A stretch of 64,000 nt of DNA from Bacteroidota bacterium. GTDB lineage: Bacteria > Bacteroidota > Bacteroidia > Chitinophagales > Chitinophagaceae. Position numbers and translations under genes: made by a program. This document shows, piece by piece, positions 2,067-36,060 of this stretch; within the stretch, counting starts at the first letter, position 1, and every line of letters begins with the position of its first letter. The DNA lies in assembly GCA_023409975.1 (NCBI GenBank), contig JAEYQO010000104.1:1157-65156 (forward strand), in the 5' to 3' direction. The notes under the pieces were generated by a model, which saw only the letters and a list, made by a program, of their open reading frames with translations, made no database searches and had not been told where the DNA came from.

Positions 2067-3278
2067 TCAGGTGGGCCCAAACAAGTCATAGTGGACCGGA
2101 AGTTTTGCGTTTCTTTTCCTTTTCTGGTTATGCAGTGCAAGCAGGCCCTTAATACTGATGTATCCTGCCAGATGGATGCGTAACAAAGTAGTGACATTGC
2201 TGAAAGCAATTTTTGAGCCATTACGGTTGTGGATAACACTGAGCAGCAGCACGCCAATCAGCGCGCACCATATCTGCACCTCTATGGCGTTTTGATTATC
2301 TCCCACAAAATACTGCAAAGGAAAATTCTGCTTAAGCTTCTTAAAGAATAGCTCTATCTGCCATCGATACTGGTAGATAGCCGCAATTGTGGCTGCATCT
2401 AACTCAAAGTTATTGGTGATAAACTCGTAGACCCGGCCTCCTTTGGCATCCCACCAGGCAATGCGACGCAGTTCCAGAATGTGCTCTTTCCCTTGCCCAT
2501 CTTTATAGGTCTGATGAATGATTTCATCTTTTAAGACCGAATCCGGCGTGTCTTTAGCCGGTAACTTTTCGGATACCGAAGTATAGATGGCATTATCCTT
2601 CTGGCGGGTGACAAAGAAGATGCCTTTCCGGATAAAGTCTGCAAACTGCAGGTAGTTGTTGTACCCCTTGTCAAAAGTCAGAAAGGAGCCCTCAGGTAGC
2701 TGAATATACTTCAGGAATTGCTGGTCATTATCTGCTGCGGCATTAAAGCGGATCAGTACGGGCATTAGGGATGTAGCCTGGAGCATGGTGTTCTTCTTAA
2801 TCCCTCCCTTTCTTTTGCCATCTGCAGGTGTTCTCCCGGATGTCTTTAGAATGGCCTTAAACAGGGAAAAAACCGTTGAATCAATAACAAAGAGCTTAGA
2901 CAGTACTGCGGAAGATAGAGTGCTGTCCGACAAATTAAGCCGGTAGCGAGCGCATAAATCCTCATATATCTTACCAAATACGGCGGATGATCTGTTCTTA
3001 TTTGCATCAGCAAGCGTGGAACGTGGAGGTACCTTATTAAGGTTCAGGTGAGAGAGCTTACCGCCAAAAGCTTCCAGCCCCATCACGATCTCCCGTAGCG
3101 ACGTACAGTTGGACAGTACACAAAACATCATGGTAACATAATGATCCCAGGCTGTGATAGACTTATACCACTTGTTTGCCTTAGTTTCTTTGAAAACCTG
3201 AGACAGGCTGTCTTTAGACGAAAGCGTCAGGATCTGGGAGAAGATGTGCTGTCCGACAAAATGGGTACTTTTGTTCAT
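2067..3278 (-). CDS. IS4-family DDE transposase (DUF4372-type N-terminus)
   Basis: MNKSTHFVGQHIFSQILTL...WDHYVTMMFCVLSNCTSLREI...FVIDSTVFSL...TFDKGYNNY...YRWQIELFFKKLKQNF: the N-terminal domain plus DDE_Tnp_1-like YRWQIE.FFK motif typical of Bacteroidota IS4 elements. I use the ATG at 3278; the listed ORF start at 3314 is TTG. Confidence 0.85.
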   Translation of the reverse strand: MNKSTHFVGQHIFSQILTLSSKDSLSQVFKETKANKWYKSITAWDHYVTMMFCVLSNCTSLREIVMGLEAFGGKLSHLNLNKVPPRSTLADANKNRSSAVFGKIYEDLCARYRLNLSDSTLSSAVLSKLFVIDSTVFSLFKAILKTSGRTPADGKRKGGIKKNTMLQATSLMPVLIRFNAAADNDQQFLKYIQLPEGSFLTFDKGYNNYLQFADFIRKGIFFVTRQKDNAIYTSVSEKLPAKDTPDSVLKDEIIHQTYKDGQGKEHILELRRIAWWDAKGGRVYEFITNNFELDAATIAAIYQYRWQIELFFKKLKQNFPLQYFVGDNQNAIEVQIWCALIGVLLLSVIHNRNGSKIAFSNVTTLLRIHLAGYISIKGLLALHNQKRKRNAKLPVHYDLFGPT

Positions 3279-3361
3279 GTTGTAGTTAATTCTATGGAAA
3301 GAACAAACTAACAACTTTTAGGGGGCCCCGTGGCCCCCTTTATAATGATTTATACCGAATT

Positions 3362-3384
3362 ATTTTCTCGGACAACAGTGGTTT
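3362..3384. repeat. IS right terminal inverted repeat
   Basis: attttctcggacaacagtggttt; pairs with 1966-1988. Confidence 0.75.
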
Positions 3385-3470
3385 TCTTCCTTTTATTTCA
3401 ACTGAAACTTTCCCACAGTTTGCGTTTTTCTGAAATATGGCGGCTAAGATGCTCCAATTTCTCAACCTAC

Positions 3471-3536
3471 TGACAAGGTATTGACAAGGTATCAACAAGG
3501 AGTTAACAAGGAGTCAACAAGGAGTCAACAAGGAGT
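3471..3536 (+). repeat. Tandem array A1: 6 x 11-bp units
   Basis: tgacaaggtat tgacaaggtat caacaaggagt taacaaggagt caacaaggagt caacaaggagt; exact 11-bp period. Confidence 0.9.
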
Positions 3537-3600
3537 TATCCCCCATTCTCGTTCGTCTAAATAATTGGTATTTCAATCACATATGAGGCGAGAAAATGGT

Positions 3601-3665
3601 CCCACATTTTTGATGCCAGAGATTTTCTTTCCGCGCCAGGCGGGGCTTTGCTGTGTGTTGCGCAA
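3601..3665 (+). repeat. Box B1 (about 65-bp direct repeat, partner at 4196-4260)
   Basis: Shares ..atgcca.a.ATTTTCTTTCCGC.CCAG....GGCTTTG.. with 4196-4260. The 13-mer attttctttccgc is exact at 3622-3634 and 4216-4228. Confidence 0.7.
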
Positions 3666-3691
3666 CAACAGCAATGGATTTGGATGAGAAT

Positions 3692-3930
3692 GGCCGTTGG
3701 CCGTTGGCGGTGGAGCTGAATCGATGGAAGGAAAATGGGGAAAGCCAAGACGAAGGCTCAGGCAAGGGCGAAGGCCAAGGCCAAGGCGAAGGCCAAGGCA
3801 CCCCCACAACCCACGACCTCGACCAAACGGGCCGTTGGCCATTGGCGGGGAAAAGAGCGAAAGCCAAAGCCAAGGCCAAAGCCAAGGCACCCGCACAACC
3901 CACAACCCACAACCCACAACCCACAACCAA
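3692..3930 (+). repeat. Two tandem low-complexity modules (M1 3692-3828, M2 3829-3930)
   Basis: Each module starts ggccgttggcc(g/a)ttggcgg. It continues with an (AAGGCC/AAAGCC)n hexamer tract (about 3742-3800 and 3857-3890) and ends with CACAACC-type heptamers. Confidence 0.85.
3894..3928 (+). repeat. Perfect heptanucleotide microsatellite (CACAACC)x5
   Basis: cacaacc repeated five times without mismatch; a degenerate 3-unit version lies at about 3805-3825. Confidence 0.95.
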
Positions 3931-3943
3931 TCAGGTATGGACA

Positions 3944-4009
3944 ACTCCTTAATGACTCTTTACTGACTCTTTGGTGACTGTTTGGTGATACTTTGGTGAT
4001 ACCCTGGCA
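3944..4009 (-). repeat. Tandem array A2: 6 x 11-bp units, inverted copy of A1
   Basis: actccttaatg actctttactg actctttggtg actgtttggtg atactttggtg ataccctggca. It matches 49/66 positions of the reverse complement of A1, with the same 4 act.. + 2 atac.. unit order. Confidence 0.85.
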
Positions 4010-4088
4010 ACTGGGTAGCAAAGCATAGCTCTTTTCTTAAAAAATAGCGTTTTGGCTGCACAAGCCTTATGCAGCCTTCACTGTGATG

Positions 4089-4154
4089 ACTCTTTGCTGA
4101 CTCTTTGGTGATACTTTGGTGACTCTTTGGTGATACTTTGGTGATACCCTCGCA
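4089..4154 (-). repeat. Tandem array A3: 6 x 11-bp units, direct copy of A2
   Basis: actctttgctg actctttggtg atactttggtg actctttggtg atactttggtg ataccctcgca; 57/66 identical to A2 and 79 bp downstream of it. Confidence 0.9.
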
Positions 4155-4195
4155 GCACACTTGTTTTTAACTGGTTTTTTTCGGAAACATTGTCT

Positions 4196-4260
4196 CCTCA
4201 TTTCTCATGCCACAAATTTTCTTTCCGCACCAGCAGCGGCTTTGACACGGGTCGCGCGAC
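4196..4260 (+). repeat. Box B2 (direct repeat of B1)
   Basis: cctcatttctcatgccacaaATTTTCTTTCCGCaCCAGcagcGGCTTTGacacgggtcgcgcgac; see B1. Confidence 0.7.
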
Positions 4261-4453
4261 CTTAGCGACCCATATTTCTGCCTGTTCTTGCTCATTTTTG
4301 CACCATGATTCACAACATCAGACCCATGAACGGATTAAACGCTCAGATACTCATTCAGTACGCCCGGTTCCCACTATTGAAAATTTCTATATTCGATGGC
4401 CGCCAAACGGTTTGTCCTGATCCGATGTCTCTACAGTCACCTCAAAGTTTTTT

Positions 4454-5749
4454 ATGAAGTATTTTGATCGGCGAAAGATGATTCAGAACCTGATTTCAAC
4501 TACCGCTTTCCTCGTTTTGCTTGTGTCCTGCAGTTCGGAGGCTGCCGGAAAGCAAGTGAAGGTTTTGTTCATTGGCAATAGCTATACGTATGTCAACAAT
4601 CTGCCAGTGCTGATCGCTGACATGGCAACAGCCTCCGGTGACCAACTAGTTTTCAGCACCAGCGCCCCCGGAGGACACACCCTGGAGCAACATGCATCGA
4701 ATCCAGCCACTTTATCGCTGATAGCCCAGGGGGGGTGGGATTATGTTGTATTGCAGGAACAAAGTCAACGGCCTGCCTTTCCCGATGCCCAGGTAGTCGC
4801 CGATGTATATCCCTATGCCCGAAAGCTCGACAGCCTTGTAAAGGCAGCGGATTCCTGTACAAAAACTGTTTTTTATATGACCTGGGGACGAAAGAATGGT
4901 GATCAGATGAACTGCGCTTTTTTCCCGCCACTTTGTACGTATCTCGGTATGGATAGTCTGCTGCAGCTTCGCTACAGTATTATGGCCGATAATAACGGTG
5001 CCGTTCTTGCCCCCGTTGCAAAGGTTTGGAGGCAAGTCAGAGCTCAGCACCCCTCACTGGAACTGTACGATGCGGACGAGAGTCATCCTTCTCTGAAAGG
5101 TTCTTTTGCCGCTGCCGCCGCGTTCTATGCGATTTTCTTCAATAAAAATCCTGCGCTAAACAGCTATACCGCAGGTCTGGATGCGAGCGAGGCACTTACT
5201 ATAAAAAATGCTGCAAAGTTGGTTGTATTCGATTCTCTGACTACCTGGTATCAGCATGATCCACTGCCGGCTGCTCAGTTTAATTATACCGTGTCTGGAA
5301 ATCAGGTAAGTTTTCAGAATGCTTCTACAGATGCCACCACTTTTAAATGGTACTTCGGTGATGGTGACAGCTCTACACTGGAACACCCGGTACACTCCTA
5401 TGCTTCCATTGGGACCTATCCGGTGACCCTTATTGCCAGTCATTGTTCTTTCACCGATACTACATTAATCAATGTTCAAATGTCCGGCACTGGATTGGAG
5501 GTGATCCACAGCCCTATGGACATCAACATCTACCCAAATCCTGCCAAAGACTTCGTTTCGCTGCAGGCGTCTGAGGATATCAGGAAAGTTGTGATGTTTA
5601 GCGTGTCTGGATCTAAAGTCGCGGAATGGCAATCCCTCAAAGCCAGGGAGCTGGAACTGGATATCAGATTGCTCTCCAGCGGTATGTACTACCTGAATAT
5701 GATCACCGACGAAGGCCGGAACGTGAGGCTGATCCAGGTCATCAAATAG
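4454..5749 (+). CDS. Secreted SGNH/DUF4886-like hydrolase with PKD domain and T9SS type-A C-terminal sorting domain
   Basis: Signal peptide; KVLFIGNSYTYVNNLP (SGNH block I-like); PKD motif FKWYFGDGDSSTLEHPVHSYASIGTYPVTLIA; C-terminal IYPNPAKDFVSLQ...GMYYLNMITDEGRNVRLIQVIK (Por secretion tail). Confidence 0.8.
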   Translation: MKYFDRRKMIQNLISTTAFLVLLVSCSSEAAGKQVKVLFIGNSYTYVNNLPVLIADMATASGDQLVFSTSAPGGHTLEQHASNPATLSLIAQGGWDYVVLQEQSQRPAFPDAQVVADVYPYARKLDSLVKAADSCTKTVFYMTWGRKNGDQMNCAFFPPLCTYLGMDSLLQLRYSIMADNNGAVLAPVAKVWRQVRAQHPSLELYDADESHPSLKGSFAAAAAFYAIFFNKNPALNSYTAGLDASEALTIKNAAKLVVFDSLTTWYQHDPLPAAQFNYTVSGNQVSFQNASTDATTFKWYFGDGDSSTLEHPVHSYASIGTYPVTLIASHCSFTDTTLINVQMSGTGLEVIHSPMDINIYPNPAKDFVSLQASEDIRKVVMFSVSGSKVAEWQSLKARELELDIRLLSSGMYYLNMITDEGRNVRLIQVIK

Positions 5750-5847
5750 TAACTGGTAGTTGACAACGAAGAGATGAAGACACAGCTGCGGAAACAGTGG
5801 TTCTGTAACTTCGTTACAATGTTTTCAGATCATCAACAGCAAGTGCC

Positions 5848-6291
5848 ATGATTAATTTATATACCATCGGGTTCGCCGGGAAATCTGCGGAGAAGTTCTT
5901 CAGCCTGCTTCAGCAGGCTGGGGTGACCAGAATTATCGACACCCGCCTCAATAATGTGTCGCAAATGTCGGGGTTTGCCAAAGCCGGGGATCTGAAGTTT
6001 TTTGCGAAGGTGATCGGCAATATCGACTATATCCATCGTTTAGACTTTGCACCGACAAAGGAGCTGCTGGACCAATACCGGCAAAAGCACCTGACCTGGG
6101 TGGAGTACGAGGTAGCGTACCTCAATCTCCTTAAGAGGCGCGGGATAGCACAGAAGATCGATATTGAAATGTTGGAGAATAGTTGTCTTCTTTGCAGCGA
6201 ACACAGCCCTGGCTACTGTCACCGCAGGTTGCTGGCGGATTATCTATGCCGGGTGAAGGGCGGCATAGATGTATATCATCTGGTCGATTAG
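5848..6291 (+). CDS. DUF488 family protein
   Basis: LYTIGFAGKSAEKFFSLLQQAGVTRIIDTRLNN...LLCSEHSPGYCHRRLLADYL matches the DUF488 layout (TIGh..ks...F, vvDvR, C.E....CHR). Confidence 0.7.
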   Translation: MINLYTIGFAGKSAEKFFSLLQQAGVTRIIDTRLNNVSQMSGFAKAGDLKFFAKVIGNIDYIHRLDFAPTKELLDQYRQKHLTWVEYEVAYLNLLKRRGIAQKIDIEMLENSCLLCSEHSPGYCHRRLLADYLCRVKGGIDVYHLVD

Positions 6292-6324
6292 AGAGTAGCG
6301 TTTCGAATGATGAGGTTTGATGGG

Positions 6325-7089
6325 TTATGCGTACGCCAACGATTCCCACTCACTAATATCGTGGTAGCCATAAACCGGTATGTCCGGATACGTGGCTATG
6401 AATTGCCGGATTTTTTCCAGCGACTCCAGCCTGAGCGCATTATCATCCGCTCTGCTTTCTGCCAGTTCGTGGACAGGATGCTCAGGATCATCCAGTTCCG
6501 CACGAAGGTAGTAGGCGTCACCTGTGTAGAATATTATGCTGCTCCCATGTTCAATAGCAACGCCGCAGTGTCCGAATGTGTGTCCAAACAATGGGATCAG
6601 ATATATGCTCGTCCCCGGCAGAACAGAAACGCTTCTGGCCTCAAAGCCCATCCAGTTTGCATCCGCCTGCTCATAGGTCTTGATCACAGGCCGGTGTTCA
6701 AGCTGATGAGGCAGGTATCGGAAATGCCCCGATTTAAAATGCTCGAATTCCTCAAAACCAACATGTACTACGGCCTGGGGAAAGTCAGCCAGACCACCGA
6801 TATGGTCCGGGTCTAAATGGCTGATCACACAATCACTGACCTTTGCAGGATCCAGACCCAGTTGCTGTATCTGCCTGTACGCGGTCCGTTCCTCGCTGAA
6901 TCTGAATCCTACTATAGAAATCAGTTCCTGCCCAATCCTCTCGGCAGGATGTTCGGTGTCCTTTAAGCCTATTCCCACATCGATCATTACCAACTGTTCG
7001 TCCTGTTCCAGAAGCAGGCAATGACCAATGGCGCTCCCATTTCCCGGAGATTCAATTTCAACACAATTCAGGTGGTGTACCCTTAACAT
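6325..7089 (-). CDS. MBL-fold metallo-hydrolase
   Basis: ISHLDPDHIGGLADF (HxHxDH-type motif), GHTFGHCGV, and YTGDAYY later in the sequence. Confidence 0.8.
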   Translation of the reverse strand: MLRVHHLNCVEIESPGNGSAIGHCLLLEQDEQLVMIDVGIGLKDTEHPAERIGQELISIVGFRFSEERTAYRQIQQLGLDPAKVSDCVISHLDPDHIGGLADFPQAVVHVGFEEFEHFKSGHFRYLPHQLEHRPVIKTYEQADANWMGFEARSVSVLPGTSIYLIPLFGHTFGHCGVAIEHGSSIIFYTGDAYYLRAELDDPEHPVHELAESRADDNALRLESLEKIRQFIATYPDIPVYGYHDISEWESLAYA

Positions 7090-7158
7090 ACTATCTCTGC
7101 TTAAATTACAGCAAACTTAATCGATCGATTCCAGGCCAGATAGAACCAAAACGACGTC

Positions 7159-7998
7159 TTATCCTTCAGTGAGGATGCGCAGGGGCTTCAGGGGATAGTC
7201 CATCGTCGGTTGAAACGGCTGGCGTTTCGTAACGACTCTGAGAAACTGCCCCGGAGTATAACCCGAAAAATCTTTGAATGTCCTGATGAAATGAGAGGGG
7301 TCTGTGTATCCCAGGTTATAGGCAATATCACTCATCTTTTGATACTGAAAGCTTTTGAGCATTTGAAGTGCCTGTTGAAACTTGAGGATACGAAGCCAGG
7401 TCTCTGCTTTCAGACCGATATTTTGTTTGAATATTCGCTGAAATTGCCTCTGCGAAATATGCAGCGAGGCTGGGAGCATCCCCGGCCTGATTGTGTCAAT
7501 TTCATCCTTTACCAGTTTCAGGCAGGATTCGAAAAGTGGATCGGGGTTGGCGGAACCAGCAAGCCGGCGCAGGGAGCTGCTGAACAGGTCGCTGAGTTGG
7601 GCAGGTGGCCCCGCATGCAGCAATTGATCATTTATCCCGTGTCCCAGAAGTTCTTCCAGCGCTACTACCGAATTGGTAAGTTCTGATGCATCGATCCTGA
7701 AAAAGGTTTTCAGAGCAGAGGGTTTCAGGTCAATGCCAAATACAAAGGTCTTGTCCGTTATCTGATTGAGGCAGGGTTTGGTCGCCTGGCCATGAACAAA
7801 GGATACCGGCAGGGGAGACCCGAGCGGGTCGAATACTTTTGACCGGCCATTGCTGTGTTGGAAAATGATACCGGGTGCACCGGTTGGAAGAATCCTGATG
7901 GTTGATTTCAGATCACTGTGCTGCGTCTCTTCATAGTACCAGTACCTGGTAACGAATTGCCTCAGAGAGGGTGGCGGCTCCAGTATTTGAATTGCCAT
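7159..7998 (-). CDS. AraC-family transcriptional regulator
   Basis: C-terminal HTH_18 region: MSDIAYNLGYTDPSHFIRTFKDFSGYTPGQF. I use the ATG at 7998 (MAIQILEPP...); the listed ORF extends to 8106. Confidence 0.8.
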   Translation of the reverse strand: MAIQILEPPPSLRQFVTRYWYYEETQHSDLKSTIRILPTGAPGIIFQHSNGRSKVFDPLGSPLPVSFVHGQATKPCLNQITDKTFVFGIDLKPSALKTFFRIDASELTNSVVALEELLGHGINDQLLHAGPPAQLSDLFSSSLRRLAGSANPDPLFESCLKLVKDEIDTIRPGMLPASLHISQRQFQRIFKQNIGLKAETWLRILKFQQALQMLKSFQYQKMSDIAYNLGYTDPSHFIRTFKDFSGYTPGQFLRVVTKRQPFQPTMDYPLKPLRILTEG

Positions 7999-8265: not shown

Positions 8266-9063
8266 CTATTTCCGGATGAATCGTTGCTGTTGATTTCCAA
8301 AGCGGATGAGATATATGCCGCCTGGGAGGTTCATCAGGGATGCTCTGCCCGTAGGGAAGGGGACGGATTGGAGCACTTTCCCCGAAAGATCTAGAATCTC
8401 AACCTTGTCGGTGCTTTTTATCCCTGATGTCGACCACTGAATAAAGTCACCGGCAGGATTCGGAGCCACCTCGAATGTTTCAGCTCTGCTGATAGGTCCT
8501 ATATTATTGGTTCCGGGGAGAACGGTAATATCATCGAAAGCAACTGCATACCAATTGTTGAAGGTCGTATACCGGAAAACCAGGCGACCATTACCAGGTA
8601 CAGCCGGTATCGGCAGCGTAGTATCCCGGAAATTCCTGGAATTATGCTCAAGGGATATCAGATCAGCCAGCAGATAGTCAGTGCCGTTCGATCGTAAGAT
8701 CACCTGAATACTATCCGCGCTCCATGCGCCCCCGAAAGTGAATACATTGAAGCTGAACTGGAGCTCCCCACCGTCCGTAAAGTCAAATAACGGCGAAATA
8801 GCCTCGTCAACGGAAAGCACGTCCGGGTCATTGAACAAGCCTGAGGGGTGCTGAAGGCAATTCGGAGCTGAAGTGGGAACATAACCGTCCATATAATCCT
8901 CAGCATAACCAAATCCGTGTCCGGCAACTGCACCATGTCTGACCATCGTCCAACCCTGTTTTTGTGAAGGCGAATCAAAGCCTGTAGTGTAGGGGAGCGG
9001 TGTTTGCGCTGTAAGGCTGGTAGGTAACGCAAACAACGCAACAAGTAATAGATGTCTTTTCAT
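8266..9063 (-). CDS. Secreted beta-sandwich protein (choice-of-anchor-J/MAM-like, uncertain) with T9SS type-A C-terminal domain
   Basis: Signal peptide MKRHLLLVALFALPTSLTAQ; C-terminal FEVAPNPAGDFIQW...GGIYLIRFGNQQQRFIRK. Confidence 0.7.
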   Translation of the reverse strand: MKRHLLLVALFALPTSLTAQTPLPYTTGFDSPSQKQGWTMVRHGAVAGHGFGYAEDYMDGYVPTSAPNCLQHPSGLFNDPDVLSVDEAISPLFDFTDGGELQFSFNVFTFGGAWSADSIQVILRSNGTDYLLADLISLEHNSRNFRDTTLPIPAVPGNGRLVFRYTTFNNWYAVAFDDITVLPGTNNIGPISRAETFEVAPNPAGDFIQWSTSGIKSTDKVEILDLSGKVLQSVPFPTGRASLMNLPGGIYLIRFGNQQQRFIRK

Positions 9064-9314: not shown

Positions 9315-9884
9315 ATGCTTTCTGTGAGAATAAAAAGCGAAACCCTGGAGGAACACCAACAGGCTGAAGCCCAATTATTGCCTTTTCTGAATTCCATCCA
9401 AACCCGCGACCAATACATACAACTGCTCCAAAGTTTCCTGCAATTTTATCAGCCATTGGAAAATTTAATACATGCTGCGCTGACCCCAGAGCAATTGCCA
9501 GACCTACACGAACGCAGGCATGCACACCGGCTGCTTTCAGACCTCAGGGAACTGAATGCTGCAGAGGGTCTCCTGCCGGTGCCGGTCCGTGATACCCTTA
9601 CTGCTCCCGGTGCCTGGGGCGCTCTTTATGTACAGGAAGGATCCACACTGGGAGGTCAGTATATCAGTCGACTTTTACTGAAGAATGAGGCGCTCCGTCT
9701 GACACCTGCCCAGGTATCGTTTTTTAGTGGATATGGTAGTCAGACCGGCACCCGGTGGAAACTGTTTCAGGAATCCCTCAATAAACAGCGGGACGAAGAT
9801 GCCATCATTGCTGCCGCAAAACATACTTTTTTACTTTTTCAAAACCATCTGAATGCAACCCTTAACTTTTTCGTCACTCGCTGA
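9315..9884 (+). CDS. bphO: Heme oxygenase (biliverdin-producing, BphO-type)
   Basis: LSVRIKSETLEEHQQAE (proximal-His region), ...YIQLLQSFLQFYQPLE..., GALYVQEGSTLGGQYIS (the distal-helix G..YV.EGS.LGG motif of HO). Its end overlaps the phytochrome start by 32 nt. Confidence 0.8.
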   Translation: MLSVRIKSETLEEHQQAEAQLLPFLNSIQTRDQYIQLLQSFLQFYQPLENLIHAALTPEQLPDLHERRHAHRLLSDLRELNAAEGLLPVPVRDTLTAPGAWGALYVQEGSTLGGQYISRLLLKNEALRLTPAQVSFFSGYGSQTGTRWKLFQESLNKQRDEDAIIAAAKHTFLLFQNHLNATLNFFVTR

Positions 9885-11382
9885 ACAGGATGCTGAATTC
9901 TGCGGGAAGGTACCGCTCCATCAGACCAATCTGCTGCAGCCACACGCCTGCCTGTTCCTTGTACGCCAGTCAGATCTGGTCATCATTCAGGTCGGGGAGA
10001 ACTGCGCCAGCCTGCTTCAGACAACCGCTGATCAGATTATCGGACAATCGCTGTCGCAATTCCTTCAACCGCAGCACCTCGCCCAGATCAGGGATCAACA
10101 GGTGTCGGAAAGTCTACCGTATCCTTTCGCTGTTGGGGAAGCCATCCATCATGCGGCCATTAAAAAGTCCGGCGATCTGCTATTTGTCGAGGTGGAAAAT
10201 TCACCCTATGATCGCGGAATCAATTCTTTTAAAGATATCTACCGCGACCTTAAGCATATCGCGGCTGAAATGGAACGTGCAGAATGCACGGATCAGCTCT
10301 GTGAGACGGCGGCAAGAGAGCTGAAGCGGATTTCTGGTTTTGATAAAGTGATGATTTATCAGTTTGATCAGGACTGGAATGGAGATGTGGTAGCCGAGGC
10401 TCTTGAGGAAGGAATGGATAGCTACATGGGTCTAAAGTTTCCTGCCTCCGACATTCCTCGGCAGGCCAGAGAGCTGTATAAAACAACACCCTACCGGGTC
10501 ATACCCGCTGTGGATTATGAACCGGTAAAGCTTTATCCGTTACTGAATCCCGAGACGCAGACGTTTACCGACCTGTCCGCCTGCAACCTGCGTAGCGTAG
10601 CGCAGGTCCATCTCGAGTACCTGCGGAATATGGGTGTCCAGGCGTCCATGTCAACACGTATTATGCTGAATGGTGAGCTCTGGGGGCTGATCGCCTGTCA
10701 CCACCGGCAGCCTCACGATCCGGGCTACGAGATCTGCTCGCAACTGGAGCTTTTGAGCATGCTGATTTCCAGCAAACTTTCTGCAATGCAGCTCAAGGAC
10801 GTATTTACTTACAAGAACGGACGCCAGCAGTTGCTCACAGATTTCCTGGAAGACCTTTTTGGTTCACAGGATCTGTTTCAGGCGGCTGAAAAAAATCAGG
10901 AGGAGCTGCTCCGGCTTCTGGCCGCGGAGGGTGTGGCTGTTTGTGCGAACCATAAGGTGCGAACGTTCGGTGAAGCGCCTCCACCGCATGTGGTAGAAGA
11001 ACTTTTGTTCTGGCTTCGGGCAAAACAGGTGACCGGGATTTATACACAGAACGCACTGCCGCAGCATATGGATGAAATGCAGCCGTACGCCGGGGTTGCT
11101 ACGGGTGTAATCGCATTACCTATTCAGCCTTCCCGCAATATATTTATTCTTGGCTTCAGGCCGGAGGCGGTTAAAGAAGTGCAATGGGCAGGTAACCCCT
11201 ACGAATCCATACAGATGGAGCCGGGAGAGAAGCGATATCATCCCCGGGCATCTTTCCGGTCCTGGCAGGAACAGGTGCATCACACCGCTACCGACTGGAA
11301 CAGGGAACAGCTGGATGTTGCAGAAAGTCTGAGGCAGGCTGTGGTGGAATATTATTTGAATTTCATTCAATCTTCCAATTAA
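9853..11382 (+). CDS. bphP: Bacteriophytochrome photosensory core (PAS-GAF-PHY) without an output domain
   Basis: N-terminal Cys17 in EFCGKVPLHQTNLLQPHA (compare CEREPIHIPGSIQPHG). GAF: DKVMIYQFDQDWNGDVVAE, FPASDIPRQARELY, LRSVAQVHLEYLRNMG, ELWGLIACHH. PHY tongue: WAGNP and HPRASFRSWQE. The protein stops about 25 aa after the tongue region (..SLRQAVVEYYLNFIQSSN*). Confidence 0.85.
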   Translation: MQPLTFSSLAEQDAEFCGKVPLHQTNLLQPHACLFLVRQSDLVIIQVGENCASLLQTTADQIIGQSLSQFLQPQHLAQIRDQQVSESLPYPFAVGEAIHHAAIKKSGDLLFVEVENSPYDRGINSFKDIYRDLKHIAAEMERAECTDQLCETAARELKRISGFDKVMIYQFDQDWNGDVVAEALEEGMDSYMGLKFPASDIPRQARELYKTTPYRVIPAVDYEPVKLYPLLNPETQTFTDLSACNLRSVAQVHLEYLRNMGVQASMSTRIMLNGELWGLIACHHRQPHDPGYEICSQLELLSMLISSKLSAMQLKDVFTYKNGRQQLLTDFLEDLFGSQDLFQAAEKNQEELLRLLAAEGVAVCANHKVRTFGEAPPPHVVEELLFWLRAKQVTGIYTQNALPQHMDEMQPYAGVATGVIALPIQPSRNIFILGFRPEAVKEVQWAGNPYESIQMEPGEKRYHPRASFRSWQEQVHHTATDWNREQLDVAESLRQAVVEYYLNFIQSSN

Positions 11383-11400
11383 TAGCTGTTATTTTCAAGT

Positions 11401-14400
11401 ATGCGTAAAGGAAGCAGTTCGCAGGAAAACACCGAGGTGAAGGAACGCTCTTTGGAAAAAAACTATGTGGTAGCAATAGGGGCGTCTGCAGGCGGATTGG
11501 AGGCGATCAATGAGTTCTTCGACAATATGCCGGCTACACGCCACCTTTCCTTCATCATCATCCAGCACCTTTCGCCGCAGCATAAGAGCCTGCTGGTGGA
11601 GCTGATCTCCCGTCACACGGAGATGCCCGTGAAAGAAGCGTCTCAGGAAGAGCGGATCCGCCCGGGACATGTTTATGTGATCCCCAATAATAAAGTCATT
11701 ACTGTAGTCAACGGTCAACTCAAGCTGGAGGATAAGTCCTTTGTAAAGGCACCGAATACGGCGATCGATATTTTCCTGAAATCACTGGCGGATGATATGA
11801 GAGACCGCAGTATTGCGGTTATACTTTCCGGAACTGGTACGGACGGAAGCAGGGGGATTCAGGATATTAAGACGGCGAACGGCCTGGTGCTATCGCAGGA
11901 CCCTGCCTCCGCACAGTTTGATGGTATGCCTAATAGTGCCATCGCAACTGGATTCGTCGACTTCATTCTGCCGCCCGAACTGATGCCTGAAACGATTTTT
12001 GATCATATTGACGAGTCTCCGAAAATTGAGCAGCAGGATGAACACCAGCCTGCTGAGTCTGATCTGCCGGGCGTATTGAAGCTGGTGGAGCAGCAATGTC
12101 AGCATGATTTCACTAACTATAAGGCAGCCACACTGCTGCGCAGGATCTACCGGCGCATGATCTCACAGGGGATTAATCATTTCCCGGACTACAGGAAGCT
12201 ACTGGAAACCTCAGCTGAAGAATGTGAAAACCTCGGTAAGGACTTCCTGATCGGTGTCACAAAGTTCTTCAGGGATAACTCCGCTTTCCAGGCCCTGCAA
12301 CAAAAAGTGCTGATCCCACTCATCCGGGAGAAAGCCGATAACGAACTGTTGAAAGTATGGGTAACCGCCTGCAGTACCGGACAGGAGGTGTACAGCCTTG
12401 CAATCCTGATCAATGAACTGATCGAAAGGGAAGGGAAGAACCTGGGGGTAAAGCTTTTTGCGACCGATGTGGATGCCGGGGCAATTGAAACCGCAGCGAA
12501 GGGTGTCTATTCCGCAGAGCAAATGGAGGATGTGCCAAAGCCGCTGCGTGACCGATATTTCATTTCCGACGGCCGGAATTTCGTCATACAGCCTCAGTAT
12601 CGTAAACAGATCGTATTCACCAGACATAACGTGATCAAGGACCCGCCCTTTATCAAAAATGATCTGGTGACCTGCCGCAATATGCTCATCTATATGAATC
12701 CGGCGCTGCAGCAGAAGGTATTGTCGACACTGGAGTTCTCGCTGAATACCGGAGGGTACCTCTTTCTTGGACCCAGCGAGGTGCCGGGTTCCGGACACGC
12801 TTTGGAAACGGTGGATGTGAAATGGAAAATATTCCGGAAACTTGAAGCGAGTGATGGATATAGGCCGGAGCGGACGCCTTCCGTACAGATACAGACCAGG
12901 AAAGCCTCGCCGGTCGCTACGAGAAAGCTTTCGCCTCTGGAAGAGCTATTTAAAAGCACGTTGATAGAACATTACGGTTTTGCAGCTCTTACTATTGATA
13001 AGAATTTCGATCTAAAAGAGGCTATCGGGGATTATAAGAAATACCTGTCACTGCCGGAAAAGCAGTTCTCACTGAACATCCTGAAAATGGTGCCGCCAGA
13101 GCTTTCCTTGAGTATTTCAGCCGCAGTCAGAAAGGCTATGAAGGAAGAAAAGGAGGTTACCATTCCTCAACTTTTTATCAGTGAAACCGGTGAGCGGGTT
13201 CAGATGCTGGTGCGGCCTTTCCCGGGCGGCACACAGGCCATGTTGCTCCTGGCACGTGCAGAAAACCTTCATGCTCCCGCTGCAGAACCGATAGAGCCAC
13301 TGAATCCTTCTGATGCCGCCTACGTGAAGGAACTGCAGGAGGAGCTGAAGGAAACACGACTGAACCTTCAAGTGGCCCTGGAAAGCCAGGAAACAGCCAA
13401 CGAAGAACTGCAAAGCAGCAACGAAGAACTACTGTCGGCCAATGAAGAGCTGCAGAGCAGTAACGAGGAGTTGCAGTCACTGAATGAGGAACTGCATACA
13501 CTCAATACGGAGCACCAGTTACGCATCAAAGAGTTGGTTGAGCTGACGGATGATCTGAATAACTATTTCAGTAGTACGCACATCGCCCAGATCTTTGTTG
13601 ATGGAGATCTGCGGATCCGTAAGTTCAATCCGGCTGCACAGGAGGTTATCAACCTGATAGAAGATGATATCGGACGTCCGATTCAGCATATTTCGAGTAA
13701 TATCACCAATGCCCCCCACTTTCCCGATGAGATTCAGAAAGTGATCGCGAGCCGGCAATCAGTGGAGCGGGAAGTGCAGTTGTTCAATGGTCACGCGCTT
13801 TCTCTGCGGATCTTTCCTTTTGTACGAAAGGACAAATCGGTTGACGGGGCAGTAATTACCTTGTATGATATCACTGCGATCAAAGAACTCAATGCTATTG
13901 TAAAGGCGGTATACAATGCCTCACTCAGCGCCACCCTTGCGCTGAAGGTAGTTCGCAGAAATGACAAGGTTTCCGGTTTTGAGGTGCTTTCGGCCAATCC
14001 TGCTACCGCTTTGCTATTACAGGGTAGTTTTACGGAGATCATCGGCAAAAACCTGAAAGACGTTTTGCCTTCGCTGCACCAGATGGGATTGACTGCGAAA
14101 TGCCAGCAGGTACTGGAAAGCGGCAGTCCGCATCATGAAGAGATTTTTCTCGCTAATGGTCAGCCACAAGGCTGGTTCGACCTTACAATTACGCAAATCA
14201 TAGATGGAGTCGTTATCTCCCTGCTGGACATCAGCGAAAGAAAGCGAAATGAAGAGCGTTTCAGGCAGAACTATCAGGAGCTGGTGAATACCCGCGAAAG
14301 TCTTCGTCAGCTGAATACCCAATTGGAACAGGTGGTAGCCTCGAGGACAGGGGAACTCCGACAGAGTGAAGAGCGATTCCGTATCGTGGCTTCCAGTATC

Positions 14401-16362
14401 AGCAGTGCCATCTATGACCGGGACCTCGTGAATAACAGGATATGGTGGAGCGAATCGTTTTATAAATGGCTGGGCCATGAGGAAACCCCCGAACTATCCC
14501 AGCCATCCTCCTGGCTCAACCTTGTGCATCCTGACGACCGAAAACGGGTGGAGGAAGCCTGGTCTGCACTGCTTCTTAATAACGGACAATGGGAACAGAC
14601 CTACCGTCTGAAAAGCAGGGATGGAAATTATATTGCTGTTGAAGATAAAGGCACCCTGCTTACCAGTGAAGCCGGGATTCCTTTTCGACTTATCGGTGCA
14701 CTGACCGATCTTTCGATTGCAGAACTCAAACAGCAGAACAGGCAGCTTCAACTGACCAATGATGAGCTGGAAAGGCAGGTTCAAAAAAGGACCCGGGATC
14801 TGGCAGAGCAGAAAGCCGTATTACAGGATCTGTTCATGAGGGCACCGGCGATGATCTGTATCCTCAGAGGGGAAAGCCTGGTGTTCGAGCTGGTAAATCC
14901 GCAGTATCAGAAGATGTTCCCACACCGGGAATTGAAAGGTAAATCGGTCTGGGACGCGTTACCGGAAATCAAAGGACAGCCCATCGAAAAGATATTGCAG
15001 CAGGTATATGAGAAGGGTGAAACTGCGGTAGAAAATGAATTCAGGGTAGAGTTGACGCGGGCTGGGGATGGTTCGCTGGAAGAATCCTTTTTCAATTTTG
15101 TTTATCAACCGACATTTGACGAAGAAGGAAAAGTGGATGGGATTCTGGTATTTGCCTATGAGGTGACAGAACAAATGTTGGCACGCCGGGCAGTACAACA
15201 GGCCAACGAAGAACTGAGACAATTGAACCGTGAGTTCCAGTTTGTTACCGATTTTATGCCTCAACTGGTTTGGTCTACACAGCCGGATGGTTATCACGAT
15301 TTCTACAACCGGCGCTGGTATGAATACACAGGATTGAGCTACGAAAGAACCAAAGGGGAAGGGTGGAACGCTGTTTTGCATCCGGAAGACCAGGACAGGT
15401 CCTGGGAATTATGGAAGAAGAGTCTGGAGACGGGGGAAGTCTATGAGGTGGAATACCGGTTCCGGAGATACGACGGCGAATATCGCTGGTTTCTGGGAAG
15501 AGCGCTCCCTCTGAGAGATGACAACGGAACCATCCTGAAATGGTTTGGGACCTGCACGGACATCCATGATCAGAAGATTATGAACGAACTCCTGGAGGAA
15601 CGGGTGAAAGAACGTACTTCTGAACTGGAGGCCGCCAATGCGGAGCTCACCCAGTTTGCTTCCATCGCCAGTCATGATCTTAAGGAGCCTGTCCGAAAGG
15701 TGATCATTTTCAGCCATGCTTTGAGAGATCTTCATGAGAAAGATCTGAACGAGAAAGCGCTTCGCTACCTCGAAAGAATCATCACTTCCGCAACACGGAT
15801 GAATCAGCTGGTGACGGATCTGCTGGACTTCACCGGTCTGAGTAATGTAAACTTCCAGACTGAAGTGGTGGATCTGAATGAGCTGCTTGCTGGGGTTCTT
15901 GGTGACCTGGAGCTTAAGATTCAGGAGACAGAAGCTGAGATAGAAATAGGCCCACTTCCTGAAATAGAACTGATTCCTGCTCAGATACGGCAGGTGTTTC
16001 AGAATCTGATCTCCAATTCATTAAAGTTCAGGCGCGGGGAAGTTCCGCTGCTCGTGCGGGTTGAAGCTCAGCGCGTCTCAGATCTTTCCTTTACCAGCAC
16101 CCAGACCAGGGAAGGTGCCTATGTACGGATCCGCGTGGAGGATAATGGCATCGGCTTCGATAATGAGTATGCGGAGAGGATCTTTAAGATGTATCAGCGA
16201 TTGCATTCAAAGGAAAGCTACGAGGGTACGGGCATTGGTCTGGCCATCGTCAAAAAGGTAATCGAAAACCACAAAGGCATCATACGCGCGCAGGGCAGGG
16301 AAGGTCATGGGGCTGTATTTGAGATCGTTCTGCCTTTGAGACAGAAGGAGGGTGCCAGGTAG
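11401..16362 (+). CDS. CheB methylesterase - CheR methyltransferase - coiled coil - multi-PAS - HisKA/HATPase sensor histidine kinase
   Basis: CheB: VVAIGASAGGLEAINEFF..IIIQHL..ILSGTGTDGS. CheR: DFTNYKAATLLRRIYRRM, VWVTACSTGQEVYSLAI, LFATDVDAGAIE, CRNMLIYMN. NEELxSx heptads, then several PAS modules. HisKA: FASIASHDLKEPVRK (His codon 15673-15675). HATPase: VEDNGIGF...GTGIGLAIVKKVIENHKG. Confidence 0.9.
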   Translation: MRKGSSSQENTEVKERSLEKNYVVAIGASAGGLEAINEFFDNMPATRHLSFIIIQHLSPQHKSLLVELISRHTEMPVKEASQEERIRPGHVYVIPNNKVITVVNGQLKLEDKSFVKAPNTAIDIFLKSLADDMRDRSIAVILSGTGTDGSRGIQDIKTANGLVLSQDPASAQFDGMPNSAIATGFVDFILPPELMPETIFDHIDESPKIEQQDEHQPAESDLPGVLKLVEQQCQHDFTNYKAATLLRRIYRRMISQGINHFPDYRKLLETSAEECENLGKDFLIGVTKFFRDNSAFQALQQKVLIPLIREKADNELLKVWVTACSTGQEVYSLAILINELIEREGKNLGVKLFATDVDAGAIETAAKGVYSAEQMEDVPKPLRDRYFISDGRNFVIQPQYRKQIVFTRHNVIKDPPFIKNDLVTCRNMLIYMNPALQQKVLSTLEFSLNTGGYLFLGPSEVPGSGHALETVDVKWKIFRKLEASDGYRPERTPSVQIQTRKASPVATRKLSPLEELFKSTLIEHYGFAALTIDKNFDLKEAIGDYKKYLSLPEKQFSLNILKMVPPELSLSISAAVRKAMKEEKEVTIPQLFISETGERVQMLVRPFPGGTQAMLLLARAENLHAPAAEPIEPLNPSDAAYVKELQEELKETRLNLQVALESQETANEELQSSNEELLSANEELQSSNEELQSLNEELHTLNTEHQLRIKELVELTDDLNNYFSSTHIAQIFVDGDLRIRKFNPAAQEVINLIEDDIGRPIQHISSNITNAPHFPDEIQKVIASRQSVEREVQLFNGHALSLRIFPFVRKDKSVDGAVITLYDITAIKELNAIVKAVYNASLSATLALKVVRRNDKVSGFEVLSANPATALLLQGSFTEIIGKNLKDVLPSLHQMGLTAKCQQVLESGSPHHEEIFLANGQPQGWFDLTITQIIDGVVISLLDISERKRNEERFRQNYQELVNTRESLRQLNTQLEQVVASRTGELRQSEERFRIVASSISSAIYDRDLVNNRIWWSESFYKWLGHEETPELSQPSSWLNLVHPDDRKRVEEAWSALLLNNGQWEQTYRLKSRDGNYIAVEDKGTLLTSEAGIPFRLIGALTDLSIAELKQQNRQLQLTNDELERQVQKRTRDLAEQKAVLQDLFMRAPAMICILRGESLVFELVNPQYQKMFPHRELKGKSVWDALPEIKGQPIEKILQQVYEKGETAVENEFRVELTRAGDGSLEESFFNFVYQPTFDEEGKVDGILVFAYEVTEQMLARRAVQQANEELRQLNREFQFVTDFMPQLVWSTQPDGYHDFYNRRWYEYTGLSYERTKGEGWNAVLHPEDQDRSWELWKKSLETGEVYEVEYRFRRYDGEYRWFLGRALPLRDDNGTILKWFGTCTDIHDQKIMNELLEERVKERTSELEAANAELTQFASIASHDLKEPVRKVIIFSHALRDLHEKDLNEKALRYLERIITSATRMNQLVTDLLDFTGLSNVNFQTEVVDLNELLAGVLGDLELKIQETEAEIEIGPLPEIELIPAQIRQVFQNLISNSLKFRRGEVPLLVRVEAQRVSDLSFTSTQTREGAYVRIRVEDNGIGFDNEYAERIFKMYQRLHSKESYEGTGIGLAIVKKVIENHKGIIRAQGREGHGAVFEIVLPLRQKEGAR
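13399..13503 (+). repeat. Five in-frame 21-nt repeats encoding the NEEL(Q/L)S(S/A) heptad coiled coil
   Basis: aacgaagaactgcaaagcagc / aacgaagaactactgtcggcc / aatgaagagctgcagagcagt / aacgaggagttgcagtcactg / aatgaggaactgcatacactc. Confidence 0.9.
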
Positions 16363-16747
16363 TGCGGCTGAGCAACCAGTAGCATCTATTGCTGTATAGC
16401 TCCCACCTCTTTGTTTTTCAGTAAGTTTGCATTTATGTTGAACCGTAACATCAAAAGGACTTCCGGAGCAGGCCACGTACGCGTTGTGCCTGACCTGAGA
16501 AATTATGTTACCTGGTCTTTTCCTGAGTTTGTGCCCTTCTGCGCGCAGCTTTTTTATTTCTCCTGCCTGAAGCGTTTCAGCGAAGGCTCCTCCTGTTAAT
16601 ACAGCACGTGTCACTGAATGCCCGGTTGATCAGTCCGGGCATATGGCTATTTAAGGCCTTCTAGTCGCACGTGTCATGTTTCCCCATCACCGGCCCTGCC
16701 CGTGCTGGGGCTTTCGTATGTATTGTTCACACCAAATCATAAATTTT

Positions 16748-17284: not shown

Positions 17285-18910
17285 ATGTTAGGACGTCTTT
17301 ATCTTTTTGGCGCTGTCTGGCTACTGCTGGGCAGTTCTGACCTAAACGCTCAATCGCTGCAGTGGGCACATCATTTCGGCGGCCAGGAGTGGGATATCAG
17401 TTCGGCCATTGTCGTGGATGACAGCGGGTATGTTTACGCTACCGGAACTTTTAAGGGAACTGTGGATTTCGATCCGGGACCTTCTTCACAGATACTTACA
17501 GCGCAGGGAACGGCTGATGGTTTCGTCTGCAAGTTCAATCGACTCGGCGAGTTGGTTTGGGTTGGGCATCTGGAGGGCGACGGAGCGCAGGATTGCCATG
17601 CGCTTGCAACTGATCATCAGGGAAACATTTTGGTTGCAGGATTCTTTCTGGGACAGACTGATTTTGATCCGTCTGCCGGTACGCATCAACTGATCTCTTC
17701 ACCCGGAGGTGACGCTTTCATATGGAAGCTGAACGCTGCCGGTCAGCTCGTATGGGCCAAACAGTTTACAGGTACACTTGCCATTACAGCCTATGGTGTC
17801 GCTGTGGATGATTCTGGTGATGTTTATTCCACTGGCTTTTTCGACGGGACTGCAGACTTTGATCCTGGACCTGGGCAGGTGCTTCGGACGGTTGCCGGGT
17901 ATAGTGACGCTTTCGTAGCGAAGCTTGATGCGGATGGTAATCATCAATGGGTACAATTGTTTGCCGGTAATTATGGTGAGGTAGGGCATGCCATTGTGCT
18001 TGACCAGCAGGGAAATGTATTCACTACAGGTACTTTTTTCGGCACGGCGGATTTTGATCCGGGTCCCAATCTGTTCCAGTTACATGCTCCGGGTGACCAG
18101 GAGATCTTCCTTTGTAAACTGGACGCAAACGGTGAATTTCAGTGGGCACAGTCGCTGGGTGGAGATGTGGGAATGGCACTGCTTGTGGATGACTCTGCCA
18201 ACGTGTATACGACCGGTTACTTCGGCTGGGACGATATTCAAATATTCAAGTTTGATAATAATGGGTCGCTTCTCTGGACGAAGCAGATAGGTGCCTTTTT
18301 CGGAAACGACCTTGCGATGGGCAGTGATGGGAGCGTTTATATTGCAGGTCAGTTCTTTGATACCCGGGATTTTGATCCAGGTCCTGGTCAGGTGTTCCTC
18401 ACCGCCATTGGCAGTACGGATTCCTATATTCTGAAGCTTTCACCAGGTGGCGGTTTTGATTGGGTAATGCAATTTGGTGGTATGAATGAAGTGAAAGCCG
18501 TATCGCTGGCTATTGATGATCAGGAACAGTTGTATTTAGCAGGAACTTTCGACAGTACGGCTGACTTCGATCCTGGTCCGGGGAGCGTTCCATTAACCTC
18601 CAATGGCAGCTATGATATCTTCCTAACCAGATTGAGCGCAGTTCCGCAGACGGTGTTTCAACCTGAGAAGCAGCAGTCAGCAGTCGTGTATCCAAACCCG
18701 GTTTCCGGCAGATTATGGGTGCGTTTCCCTGTGGAACAGCAACAGGTTCAGATACGACTGATGAACCTGGAAGGCAAGACCTTGGAGGAGTGGACGAAAC
18801 GGAAGATTCAGGAGGCTGCATTCCCGGTAACGCAGCCATCAGGGATTTACCTGCTGGAAATTGTGACGGAAGAACACGCGCGAACCGTTCAGCGGGTGGT
18901 GGTTCCGTGA
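17285..18910 (+). CDS. SBBP (beta-propeller) repeat protein with T9SS type-A C-terminal domain
   Basis: About 8 repeats of G(T/S)(A/V)DFDPGPG...; signal peptide; C-terminal VVYPNPVSGRLWVRF...GIYLLEIVTEEHARTVQRVVVP. Confidence 0.8.
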   Translation: MLGRLYLFGAVWLLLGSSDLNAQSLQWAHHFGGQEWDISSAIVVDDSGYVYATGTFKGTVDFDPGPSSQILTAQGTADGFVCKFNRLGELVWVGHLEGDGAQDCHALATDHQGNILVAGFFLGQTDFDPSAGTHQLISSPGGDAFIWKLNAAGQLVWAKQFTGTLAITAYGVAVDDSGDVYSTGFFDGTADFDPGPGQVLRTVAGYSDAFVAKLDADGNHQWVQLFAGNYGEVGHAIVLDQQGNVFTTGTFFGTADFDPGPNLFQLHAPGDQEIFLCKLDANGEFQWAQSLGGDVGMALLVDDSANVYTTGYFGWDDIQIFKFDNNGSLLWTKQIGAFFGNDLAMGSDGSVYIAGQFFDTRDFDPGPGQVFLTAIGSTDSYILKLSPGGGFDWVMQFGGMNEVKAVSLAIDDQEQLYLAGTFDSTADFDPGPGSVPLTSNGSYDIFLTRLSAVPQTVFQPEKQQSAVVYPNPVSGRLWVRFPVEQQQVQIRLMNLEGKTLEEWTKRKIQEAAFPVTQPSGIYLLEIVTEEHARTVQRVVVP

Positions 18911-22314: not shown

Positions 22315-22770
22315 TCAGGATTTGAGATGTCCATTCAATCTGTCCAGTTCTCCATTCCTGCAGTGACTCACGACTGCTGAAAGGACTTCTATAAGCAGTT
22401 TATACTCTGATGGTTTTGTAATAAAACTGATGGCGCCAAGGTCAGAGGCAATTTCCCGGTCTCGGTCATGCGACGAAGTGGAGTACATAATAACGGGAAT
22501 ATCCCGGTGCTCCTGAGTCTTCTTGAGTTGTGTCAGGCATTGCCAGCCACTCATTCCCGGGAGATTTATGTCCAGAAAGATCAGATCAGGTTTTAGCCCG
22601 CCATTCCCTCCAAGTCTGTTTAAGGCATCCTCGGCGTTTTCTGCAAACTCGCAACTGATTTGACTGTCAACACTTGCGAGTGCTTCTGAAAATAATTCGC
22701 GGTCATCTGCATCATCGTCTACTACTAAGAAACTATTTTTCATGGGGTCTTGTTGGTTAGATTCTGGCAT
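22315..22770 (-). CDS. Single-domain response regulator (receiver only, Rcp1-like)
   Basis: FLVVDDDADDRELFSEAL...PDLIFLDINLPGMSGWQCL...IPVIMYSTSS...ISFITKP. The start is ATG 22770 (14-nt overlap with the kinase stop) or ATG 22743. Confidence 0.85.
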   Translation of the reverse strand: MPESNQQDPMKNSFLVVDDDADDRELFSEALASVDSQISCEFAENAEDALNRLGGNGGLKPDLIFLDINLPGMSGWQCLTQLKKTQEHRDIPVIMYSTSSHDRDREIASDLGAISFITKPSEYKLLIEVLSAVVSHCRNGELDRLNGHLKS

Positions 22771-36050: not shown

Positions 36051-36060
36051 CTTAGTAGTG

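Follow-up and report, generated by a model that had tools for sequence, protein, structure and literature searches.

A bacteriophytochrome without an output domain is probably the light-input subunit of a CheB/CheR-type signalling system in Bacteroidota

How does a phytochrome signal when nothing follows its photosensory core? The question is raised by a gene at positions 9853..11382 of a 64,000-nucleotide stretch of DNA from a bacterium of the Chitinophagaceae (Bacteroidota; GenBank assembly GCA_023409975.1, contig JAEYQO010000104.1, positions 1,157 to 65,156), which is called the window below and supplies the coordinates used here. The gene starts with ATG and encodes an output-less bacteriophytochrome of 509 amino acids (aa), in which Pfam, alignment, and an AlphaFold2 model reveal a PAS_2-GAF-PHY core only. 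It is positioned between the genes of a heme oxygenase and of a 1653-aa CheB/CheR kinase. An earlier note, made from the DNA alone, described the product as a functional stand-alone photoreceptor. The output-less core is indeed conserved, but the gene sits in the middle of a cassette together with a likely partner. We propose, with a probability of about 0.6, that the 509-aa protein provides the light input to a CheB/CheR-type signalling system made of two polypeptides. All of the cassette features described below are on the plus strand.

The PAS_2, GAF, and PHY domains of the 509-aa protein (PF08446, PF01590, and PF00360) all score above the Pfam gathering cut-offs. The PAS_2 domain (9901..10137, aa 17–95) starts at Cys17 and contains the LQPH motif of the knot region. 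The GAF domain (10291..10764, aa 147–304) forms the bilin pocket and is followed by the PHY domain (10825..11358, aa 325–502, E = 4.5e-42). The biliverdin-attachment residue Cys17 is encoded by TGC 9901-9903 within the motif EFCGKVPLH..LQPH, and aligns to C24 of DrBphP. The DIP motif (D200-I-P, 10450-10458) corresponds to D207-I-P of DrBphP, H253 in VHLEYLRNMG (10609-10611) to H260, and H283 in GLIACHH (10699-10701) to H290. Also identical between the two proteins are Y176, F203, Y216, R222, R254, Y263, S272, and S274 (DrBphP numbering). The PHY tongue (11176-11256) reads W445-A-G ... P464-R-A-S-F468; W445 opens the WAGNP motif, PRASF spans P464-F468 (11242-11256), and W471-Q-E conforms to WxE/Q. 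The DrBphP reference sequence is self-consistent at 21 numbered residues. The earlier note was right that the chromophore and tongue motifs of the reading frame are intact: each of them was found in place, and all of the pocket and tongue residues checked against DrBphP are conserved.

The best match among solved structures is the photosensory module of SaBphP2 from Stigmatella (E = 1e-91, residues 9-502). An AlphaFold2 model built from a 40-sequence alignment has a mean pLDDT of 83.5, with low confidence only in the 19 N-terminal residues and in tongue residues 442-466, as expected because the tongue is the refolding element. The model superimposes on the solved modules of PsBphP, Cph1, and Agp2 with TM scores of 0.83–0.86 (Foldseek). 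The C-terminal PHY helix (aa 484-509, 11302..11379) is modelled as helical from residue 484 to 508. The protein stops 41 residues past F468. This end point is seven residues beyond the Pfam match to PHY and coincides with the PHY/DHp boundary, where canonical bacteriophytochromes run on into the DHp helix. Pfam finds no further domain after residue 502, with DHp/CA, PAS9, and HOS all absent. The early end without an effector thus agrees with the earlier note, whereas its distance from PRASF had been given there as about 25 residues. Both sequence and predicted fold mark the 509-aa protein as a genuine bacteriophytochrome photosensory core.

The core-only architecture is shared by the closest relatives of the protein. 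The 119 best database homologues (45–52% identity) are all 491–519 aa long, all have the domain composition PAS_2-GAF-PHY, and share the C-terminal end ...EYTLNK(I/V)YN with the same stop position. Those that carry a taxonomic name belong to Flavisolibacter or Chitinophagaceae, and the core-only proteins carry generic labels in the public databases, for example "GAF domain-containing protein". Residues D200, P202, H253, Y256, H283, W445, G447, P464, R465, S467, and F468 are invariant in 120/120 sequences (the query and its 119 homologues), Cys17 is kept in 119, and the DIP motif varies only between I and V. Positions F16, G18, N26, Y214, F238, R269, S302, and Y462 are specific to this clade. 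In a search of clusters at 50% identity through their representatives, nearly all of the top ~30 have lengths of 495–520 aa, and under about 335 bits the matches turn into ordinary phytochrome kinases of 735–790 aa. The conservation of length, end point, and functional residues indicates a selected output-less phytochrome and no decaying pseudogene, as the earlier note had argued; no full-length kinases were found among the close relatives. The identical 509-aa protein is on record from NCBI, Logan, and ENA assemblies, and therefore is not an assembly artefact. Signalling in trans through protein–protein contact is a reasonable inference from this sequence conservation.

The cassette begins with a bphO-like heme oxygenase of 189 aa (9315..9884; PF01126, E = 1.3e-11), which presumably supplies biliverdin. 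Its gene overlaps the start of the phytochrome gene by 32 nt, an arrangement repeated in loci L008, L009, L011, L017, and L018. The phytochrome gene is followed by tandem in-frame stop codons TAA TAG (11380-11385) and a 15-nt spacer (together 11380..11400). The CheB/CheR kinase gene starts 18 nt past the phytochrome reading frame, with its ATG at 11401 in the same frame. Both the spacing and the frame between core and kinase vary among relatives, overlaps included, and therefore there is no conserved readthrough signal at 11380-11401. A sequence scan found no terminator-like site between the two genes. A terminator-like hairpin with a T-run at 16529..16548 (plus strand), 167 nt past the kinase stop codon, may mark the end of the operon, although this is weak evidence. 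In scans of the window for sigma-70 promoters and terminators, the counts were no higher than the shuffled expectation, and no Bacteroidetes-type TAnnTTTG promoter motif was found upstream of the cassette. Therefore, the operon structure is deduced only from spacing and synteny. A scan with Rfam gave no RNA element near the cassette; it found two tRNAs only, both far off.

The proposed partner is a soluble kinase of 1653 aa (11401..16362). Its Pfam domains are, in order, CheB_methylest, CheR_N, CheR, a heptad coiled coil, PAS_10, more PAS domains, HisKA, and HATPase_c. The CheB methylesterase domain (11470..11997; PF01339, E = 7.6e-56) contains a catalytic triad S29/H56/D148, which aligns to S164/H190/D286 of Salmonella typhimurium CheB (PDB 1A2O), and its motifs are at least 95% conserved in 120 kinase homologues. 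Pfam finds no receiver domain in the kinase, and thus none N-terminal to CheB. The CheR methyltransferase consists of CheR_N and a domain that binds S-adenosylmethionine (SAM; 12073..12783; PF03705 and PF01739); it includes the motifs ACSTGQE at aa 323, FATDVD at aa 353, and CRNMLIYM at aa 425, and its matches to CheR structures in the PDB reach E = 5e-35. CheR is followed by PAS_10 (PF13596). The terminal PAS_3-HisKA-HATPase module (15190..16344, aa 1264-1648; PF00512 and PF02518) has the H-box SHDLKEP with His1425. Judged by the CheB triad, the SAM motifs of CheR, and the H-box histidine, the enzyme domains of the partner look active.

The most conserved segment of the kinase is a run of five heptads, NEELQSS, NEELLSA, NEELQSS, NEELQSL, and NEELHTL (13399..13503, aa 667-701). 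The heptads are at least 95% invariant in 120 kinase homologues, and are also present in partners from Sphingobacteriales and Cytophagales, in the CheB/CheR protein of locus L005, and in marine CheB/CheR-GGDEF-EAL proteins. The methylation-site consensus of methyl-accepting chemotaxis proteins (MCPs) includes the half-motif EE-x-x-[AST][AST]. The NEEL heptads resemble this half of the consensus and, speculatively, could be an intramolecular methyl-accepting site for adaptation. Separately, the window kinase contains an extra PAS_4 domain (14818-15186, aa 1140-1262) that has no counterpart in nine compared CheB/CheR kinases.

The pairing of the core with a CheB/CheR kinase recurs well beyond the window. 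The kinase gene is directly downstream of the core in every Bacteroidota pair examined. Such pairs are present in Chitinophagales (the window, Flavisolibacter tropicus, and others; L008-L012 and L017), Sphingobacteriales (Hufsiella arboris, Mucilaginibacter, and Pedobacter heparinus; L001-L004), and Cytophagales (Pontibacter kalidii and Catalinimonas alkaloidigena; L013 and L014). In these pairs, the partner kinases are 1338–1743 aa long and their genes are positioned from -4 to about +75 nt relative to the core. The flanking genes differ between loci, and therefore the pair itself is the conserved unit. A scan of genome contigs with single-protein patterns yielded seven loci; synteny was counted instead in a metagenome scan of 80 loci, of which those with a complete core-only gene, at least 39% identity, and at least 300 nt of downstream sequence were considered assessable. 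A CheB/CheR match starts 27–96 nt past the core stop codon in all 21 assessable loci, and a heme oxygenase is upstream in 18 of the 19 assessable loci that include upstream sequence. Across the three orders, the partners align colinearly from CheB up to and including the first PAS_3 domain. The coiled coil is their best-conserved block (65–88% identity across orders), whereas the terminal PAS-kinase module is conserved within Chitinophagales only.

Two related arrangements were seen in metagenome-assembled genomes (MAGs). In the pair of MAGs JAESFP01 and JAESGH01 (L034/L043 and L037/L041), one holds two core–CheB/CheR kinase pairs, and the other holds one pair together with a fused 771-aa phytochrome kinase, the kinase part of which resembles that of the partner. 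In a Microscillaceae MAG (L005), a full-length phytochrome kinase of 802 aa (9833-12241) is located 2.5 kb from a CheB/CheR kinase (3329-7288), with two response-regulator genes between them. The association of phytochromes with CheB/CheR proteins may thus extend to covalent phytochrome kinases.

A few longer relatives nest among the core-only proteins and contain the core fused to a PAS-kinase output. Protein P0244 (903 aa) has the composition core-PAS_3-HisKA-HATPase; its locus contains a heme oxygenase gene upstream and no CheB/CheR gene. Residues 507-897 of P0244 are 52% identical over 393 aa to residues 1264-1648 of the window kinase, and the P0244 output reaches 55–59% identity with the corresponding part of other partners from Chitinophagales. 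In comparison, its identity to a paralogue encoded in the window (22757-28222) is only 42%, and the C-terminal PAS-kinase modules of this paralogue and of the phytochrome-linked kinase likewise share 42% identity. The nearest relative of the P0244 core is the core-only protein P0243 (50% identity), which belongs to its own operon of heme oxygenase, core, and CheB/CheR kinase. A second protein of the same architecture, L036 (923 aa), comes from a different metagenome and shares 50.6% identity with P0244 over 898 aa, showing that the fused form is a real lineage and no chimera. The output of P0263 (1077 aa) matches the 550 C-terminal residues of the L008 and L009 partners with 47–48% identity over ~550 aa. 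Overall, the PAS-kinase modules of the fusions have 45–59% identity to the C-terminal part of CheB/CheR kinases. By their sequences, the fusions are Rosetta-stone links from the core to the kinase end of the partner.

The pairing recurs in a distant core-only family from marine metagenomes. These proteins have 25–29% identity to the query, are 489–520 aa long, and have the same PAS_2-GAF-PHY composition; ordinary phytochrome kinases are closer to the query than this family is. The Cys, DIP, CHH, WAGNP, and PRASF motifs are kept. At nine loci (L077, L088, L089, L091, L092, and L094-L097), the marine core is located 3–6 nt downstream of the gene of a 1499-aa CheB-CheR-coiled coil-PAS-PAS-GGDEF-EAL protein, the coiled coil of which reads NEELQANNEELEATNEELQATNEEL. 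Compared with the Bacteroidota pair, the two genes stand in the opposite order and the output is turnover of cyclic di-GMP (c-di-GMP) instead of a kinase, whereas the CheB-CheR-coiled coil core is the same. No residues common to both core-only families and absent from full-length bacteriophytochromes were obvious, and the clade-specific positions of the Bacteroidota cores were not found in the marine family. The marine recurrence argues for a dedicated role of output-less phytochromes as input subunits of CheB/CheR-type proteins. The earlier note had considered the architecture uncommon for bacteriophytochromes, which is correct for the studied ones; it is nevertheless the rule in a large Bacteroidota clade and recurs in the marine one.

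A mechanism consistent with these observations can be proposed. Biliverdin made by the probably co-transcribed heme oxygenase would attach to Cys17 of the PAS-GAF-PHY core, and red and far-red light would toggle the core between the Pr and Pfr states through refolding of the PHY tongue, as the conserved residues suggest. The PHY helix stops where canonical phytochromes enter the kinase, and therefore the conformational signal would have to pass non-covalently from the core to the 1653-aa kinase encoded by the next gene, with which the core is predicted to interact physically. The light state would set the kinase output of the CheB/CheR protein toward an unlinked response regulator. The methyltransferase and methylesterase of the partner could, more speculatively, add methylation-based adaptation.

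Several observations weigh against the proposal that the core serves as the input subunit of the CheB/CheR kinase. Homologues of this kinase number 7998 at E <= 1e-30 and are abundant without any phytochrome, so that the partner can exist without a photosensory core; a PHY domain is present in none of the best 120 of the 7998, and thus no single polypeptide combining phytochrome and CheB/CheR was found among them. The evidence on docking conflicts, since the fusions point to the terminal PAS-kinase, whereas the marine family points to the CheB-CheR-coiled coil core. Support for the fusions as a derived state is only moderate: in a neighbour-joining tree, the group of P0243, P0244, and P0248 has a bootstrap of 72/100, and deeper nodes are weak. 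The cassette contains no response regulator or obvious output gene. Two cores have no CheB/CheR neighbour: in L015, heme oxygenase and core are followed by a hexapeptide-repeat protein, and in L016, a metagenome contig, a 508-aa core (P0308) is located near RsbR/RsbS/RsbT-like stressosome genes and may represent a different trans-acting arrangement. The differing neighbours of L015 and L016 indicate that the output module was lost more than once, with different partners. These two loci and the lack of an output gene in the cassette would also suit a receptor that stands entirely alone and acts on an unlinked partner, comparable to RpBphP1 acting on PpsR2; adjacency to the kinase would then mean co-expression only. 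Such a receptor is quite unlikely, given that the pairing holds at every assessable metagenome locus and in three orders despite differing flanks, that the spacing is translationally tight, that natural fusions join the core to a homologous kinase module, and that the marine family provides an independent instance of the pairing.

The core might instead be a target of CheR/CheB or a gate for them. It would then be a methyl-accepting photoreceptor, or its light-dependent docking would control methylation of the NEEL heptads, and methylation, not direct allostery, would set the output and adapt it to background light. The element shared by the partners of both families is CheB-CheR-coiled coil, with outputs that differ (kinase and GGDEF-EAL); the CheB triad and the SAM motifs of CheR are intact, CheB is without a regulatory receiver, and the (NEELxSx)n heptads, which resemble half of the MCP consensus, are conserved more strongly than any other part of the partner. 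Nevertheless, this alternative is unlikely. The match of the heptads to the MCP consensus is partial, and the core itself showed no Glu-Glu or Gln-Glu pair conserved specifically in its clade. The heptads are also present in the L005 CheB/CheR protein, which has no phytochrome as neighbour, and are therefore not phytochrome-specific. The natural fusions drop CheB/CheR entirely, and light-to-kinase coupling therefore needs neither enzyme. A light-independent role, in which the core senses biliverdin, heme, or redox state or acts in an apo form of the RpBphP4 type, would be compatible with the linkage to heme oxygenase, which also suits a sensor of heme or biliverdin status; it is very improbable, because the near-complete conservation of the biliverdin-binding and tongue Pr/Pfr residues across the 120 homologues is hard to explain without photochemistry. 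With the ATG of the kinase at 11401 in frame, readthrough of the stop codon could yield core and kinase as one fusion protein, but the tandem stop codons block it, and together with the variable frames in relatives they rule out both a readthrough and a frameshift fusion. Likewise, a truncated pseudogene is ruled out by the 119 homologues of the same length with conserved residues, and an assembly artefact is contradicted by the three assembly sources. The chance that readthrough, truncation, or an assembly artefact explains the gene is negligible.

The relation of the system to known photoreceptors is one of shared parts in a different arrangement. The canonical type 1 bacteriophytochromes DrBphP, SaBphP2, Agp1, PaBphP, and PsBphP have the same PAS_2-GAF-PHY core, Cys, DIP, pocket histidines, and tongue motifs, as well as an adjacent heme oxygenase, and their solved structures are 30–40% identical to the 509-aa core. 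Unlike in type 1 proteins, the core ends at residue 509 without DHp/CA, and the kinase is separate, behind 1260 residues of CheB-CheR-coiled coil-PAS. The partner itself is a typical CheB/CheR fusion protein (KEGG K13924, also a JGI label) in its order of CheB_methylest, CheR_N, CheR, heptad coiled coil, PAS_10, more PAS domains, and output. Effector-less photoreceptors that act in trans are known among short LOV proteins and the BLUF-only pairs PixD-PixE and PapB-PapA. There, too, the sensor is encoded alone and adjoins the gene of the regulated protein, whereas the chromophore and fold differ.

Two further systems are informative for the comparison. RpBphP1 and XccBphP are non-kinase bacteriophytochromes (PMC6899989), and their output, as in RpBphP1-PpsR2, is likewise presumed to proceed via binding of another protein and no intrinsic enzyme. 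These type 3 proteins keep a C-terminal PAS9 with or without HOS, whereas the 509-aa core has nothing after PHY; the partner PpsR2 is a repressor, whereas the proposed partner here is a kinase. In haloarchaea, sensory rhodopsin signals through the Htr transducer with CheR/CheB adaptation (PMC5812497). The two systems have in common an output-less photoreceptor and a separate coiled-coil protein tied to the methylation and demethylation of glutamates as well as to a histidine kinase. They differ in that the window system is cytoplasmic, that CheB, CheR, coiled coil, and kinase form one polypeptide without MCP, CheA, or CheW, and that methylation is only putative. By this analogy, the core may functionally resemble sensory rhodopsin-Htr-CheR/CheB more closely than short LOV or BLUF-only receptors. 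A wider and rather doubtful extension is that the cores and their CheB/CheR proteins constitute a previously unrecognised class of cytoplasmic photosensory systems with methylation memory, in which light would set a kinase or GGDEF-EAL output and CheR/CheB would adapt it via the heptads or the phytochrome. Such a class would be a soluble, MCP-free analogue of sensory rhodopsin-Htr-CheR/CheB that arose at least twice, in Bacteroidota and in the marine family.

A literature search turned up no description of an output-less bacteriophytochrome paired with a CheB/CheR fusion, although its coverage of subscription journals was thin and absence is no proof. The same search returned no phytochrome equivalent of the short LOV or BLUF-only trans-acting sensors, and CheB/CheR fusions appeared in it as annotation (KEGG) labels only, with no input, methylation substrate, or photoreceptor subunit described. 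Buchberger and Lamparter (PMC4422448) discuss basal Bacteroidetes phytochromes and frequent rearrangement of photosensory and kinase parts; the passages retrieved from that paper do not mention an output-less core architecture.

Other genes in the window are distinct from the cassette. The paralogue at 22757-28222 (minus strand) is a signalling protein of 1821 aa with two HisKA and HATPase_c sets, a receiver, GAF, and many PAS domains, and is followed by a single-domain response regulator at 22315-22770 (minus strand). A DDE-type transposase (DUF4372 and DDE_Tnp_1) is encoded at 2067-3314 (minus strand), ~6 kb upstream of the cassette. C-terminal sorting domains of type IX secretion (Por_Secre_tail or CHU_C) are present in the secreted proteins at 4454-5749, 8266-9063, 17285-18910, and 36058-37986, and assign the window to Bacteroidota.

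Phytochrome signalling has so far been understood almost wholly through a continuous helix that leads from PHY into a covalent effector. The existence of a large, naturally split family indicates that the photosensory core is able to function as a subunit of its own. The pairing also opens a first way into the function of the many CheB/CheR-fused kinases and cyclases found in bacteria that are not chemotactic. It is present in the cultured hosts Pedobacter heparinus, Flavisolibacter tropicus, Mucilaginibacter pallidiroseus, and Pontibacter kalidii, which makes the proposal directly testable. A natural trans-acting near-infrared sensor with its docking partner could serve the design of optogenetic tools. 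If the adaptation by methylation is true, chemotaxis-style memory would extend to light-regulated two-component and c-di-GMP signalling.

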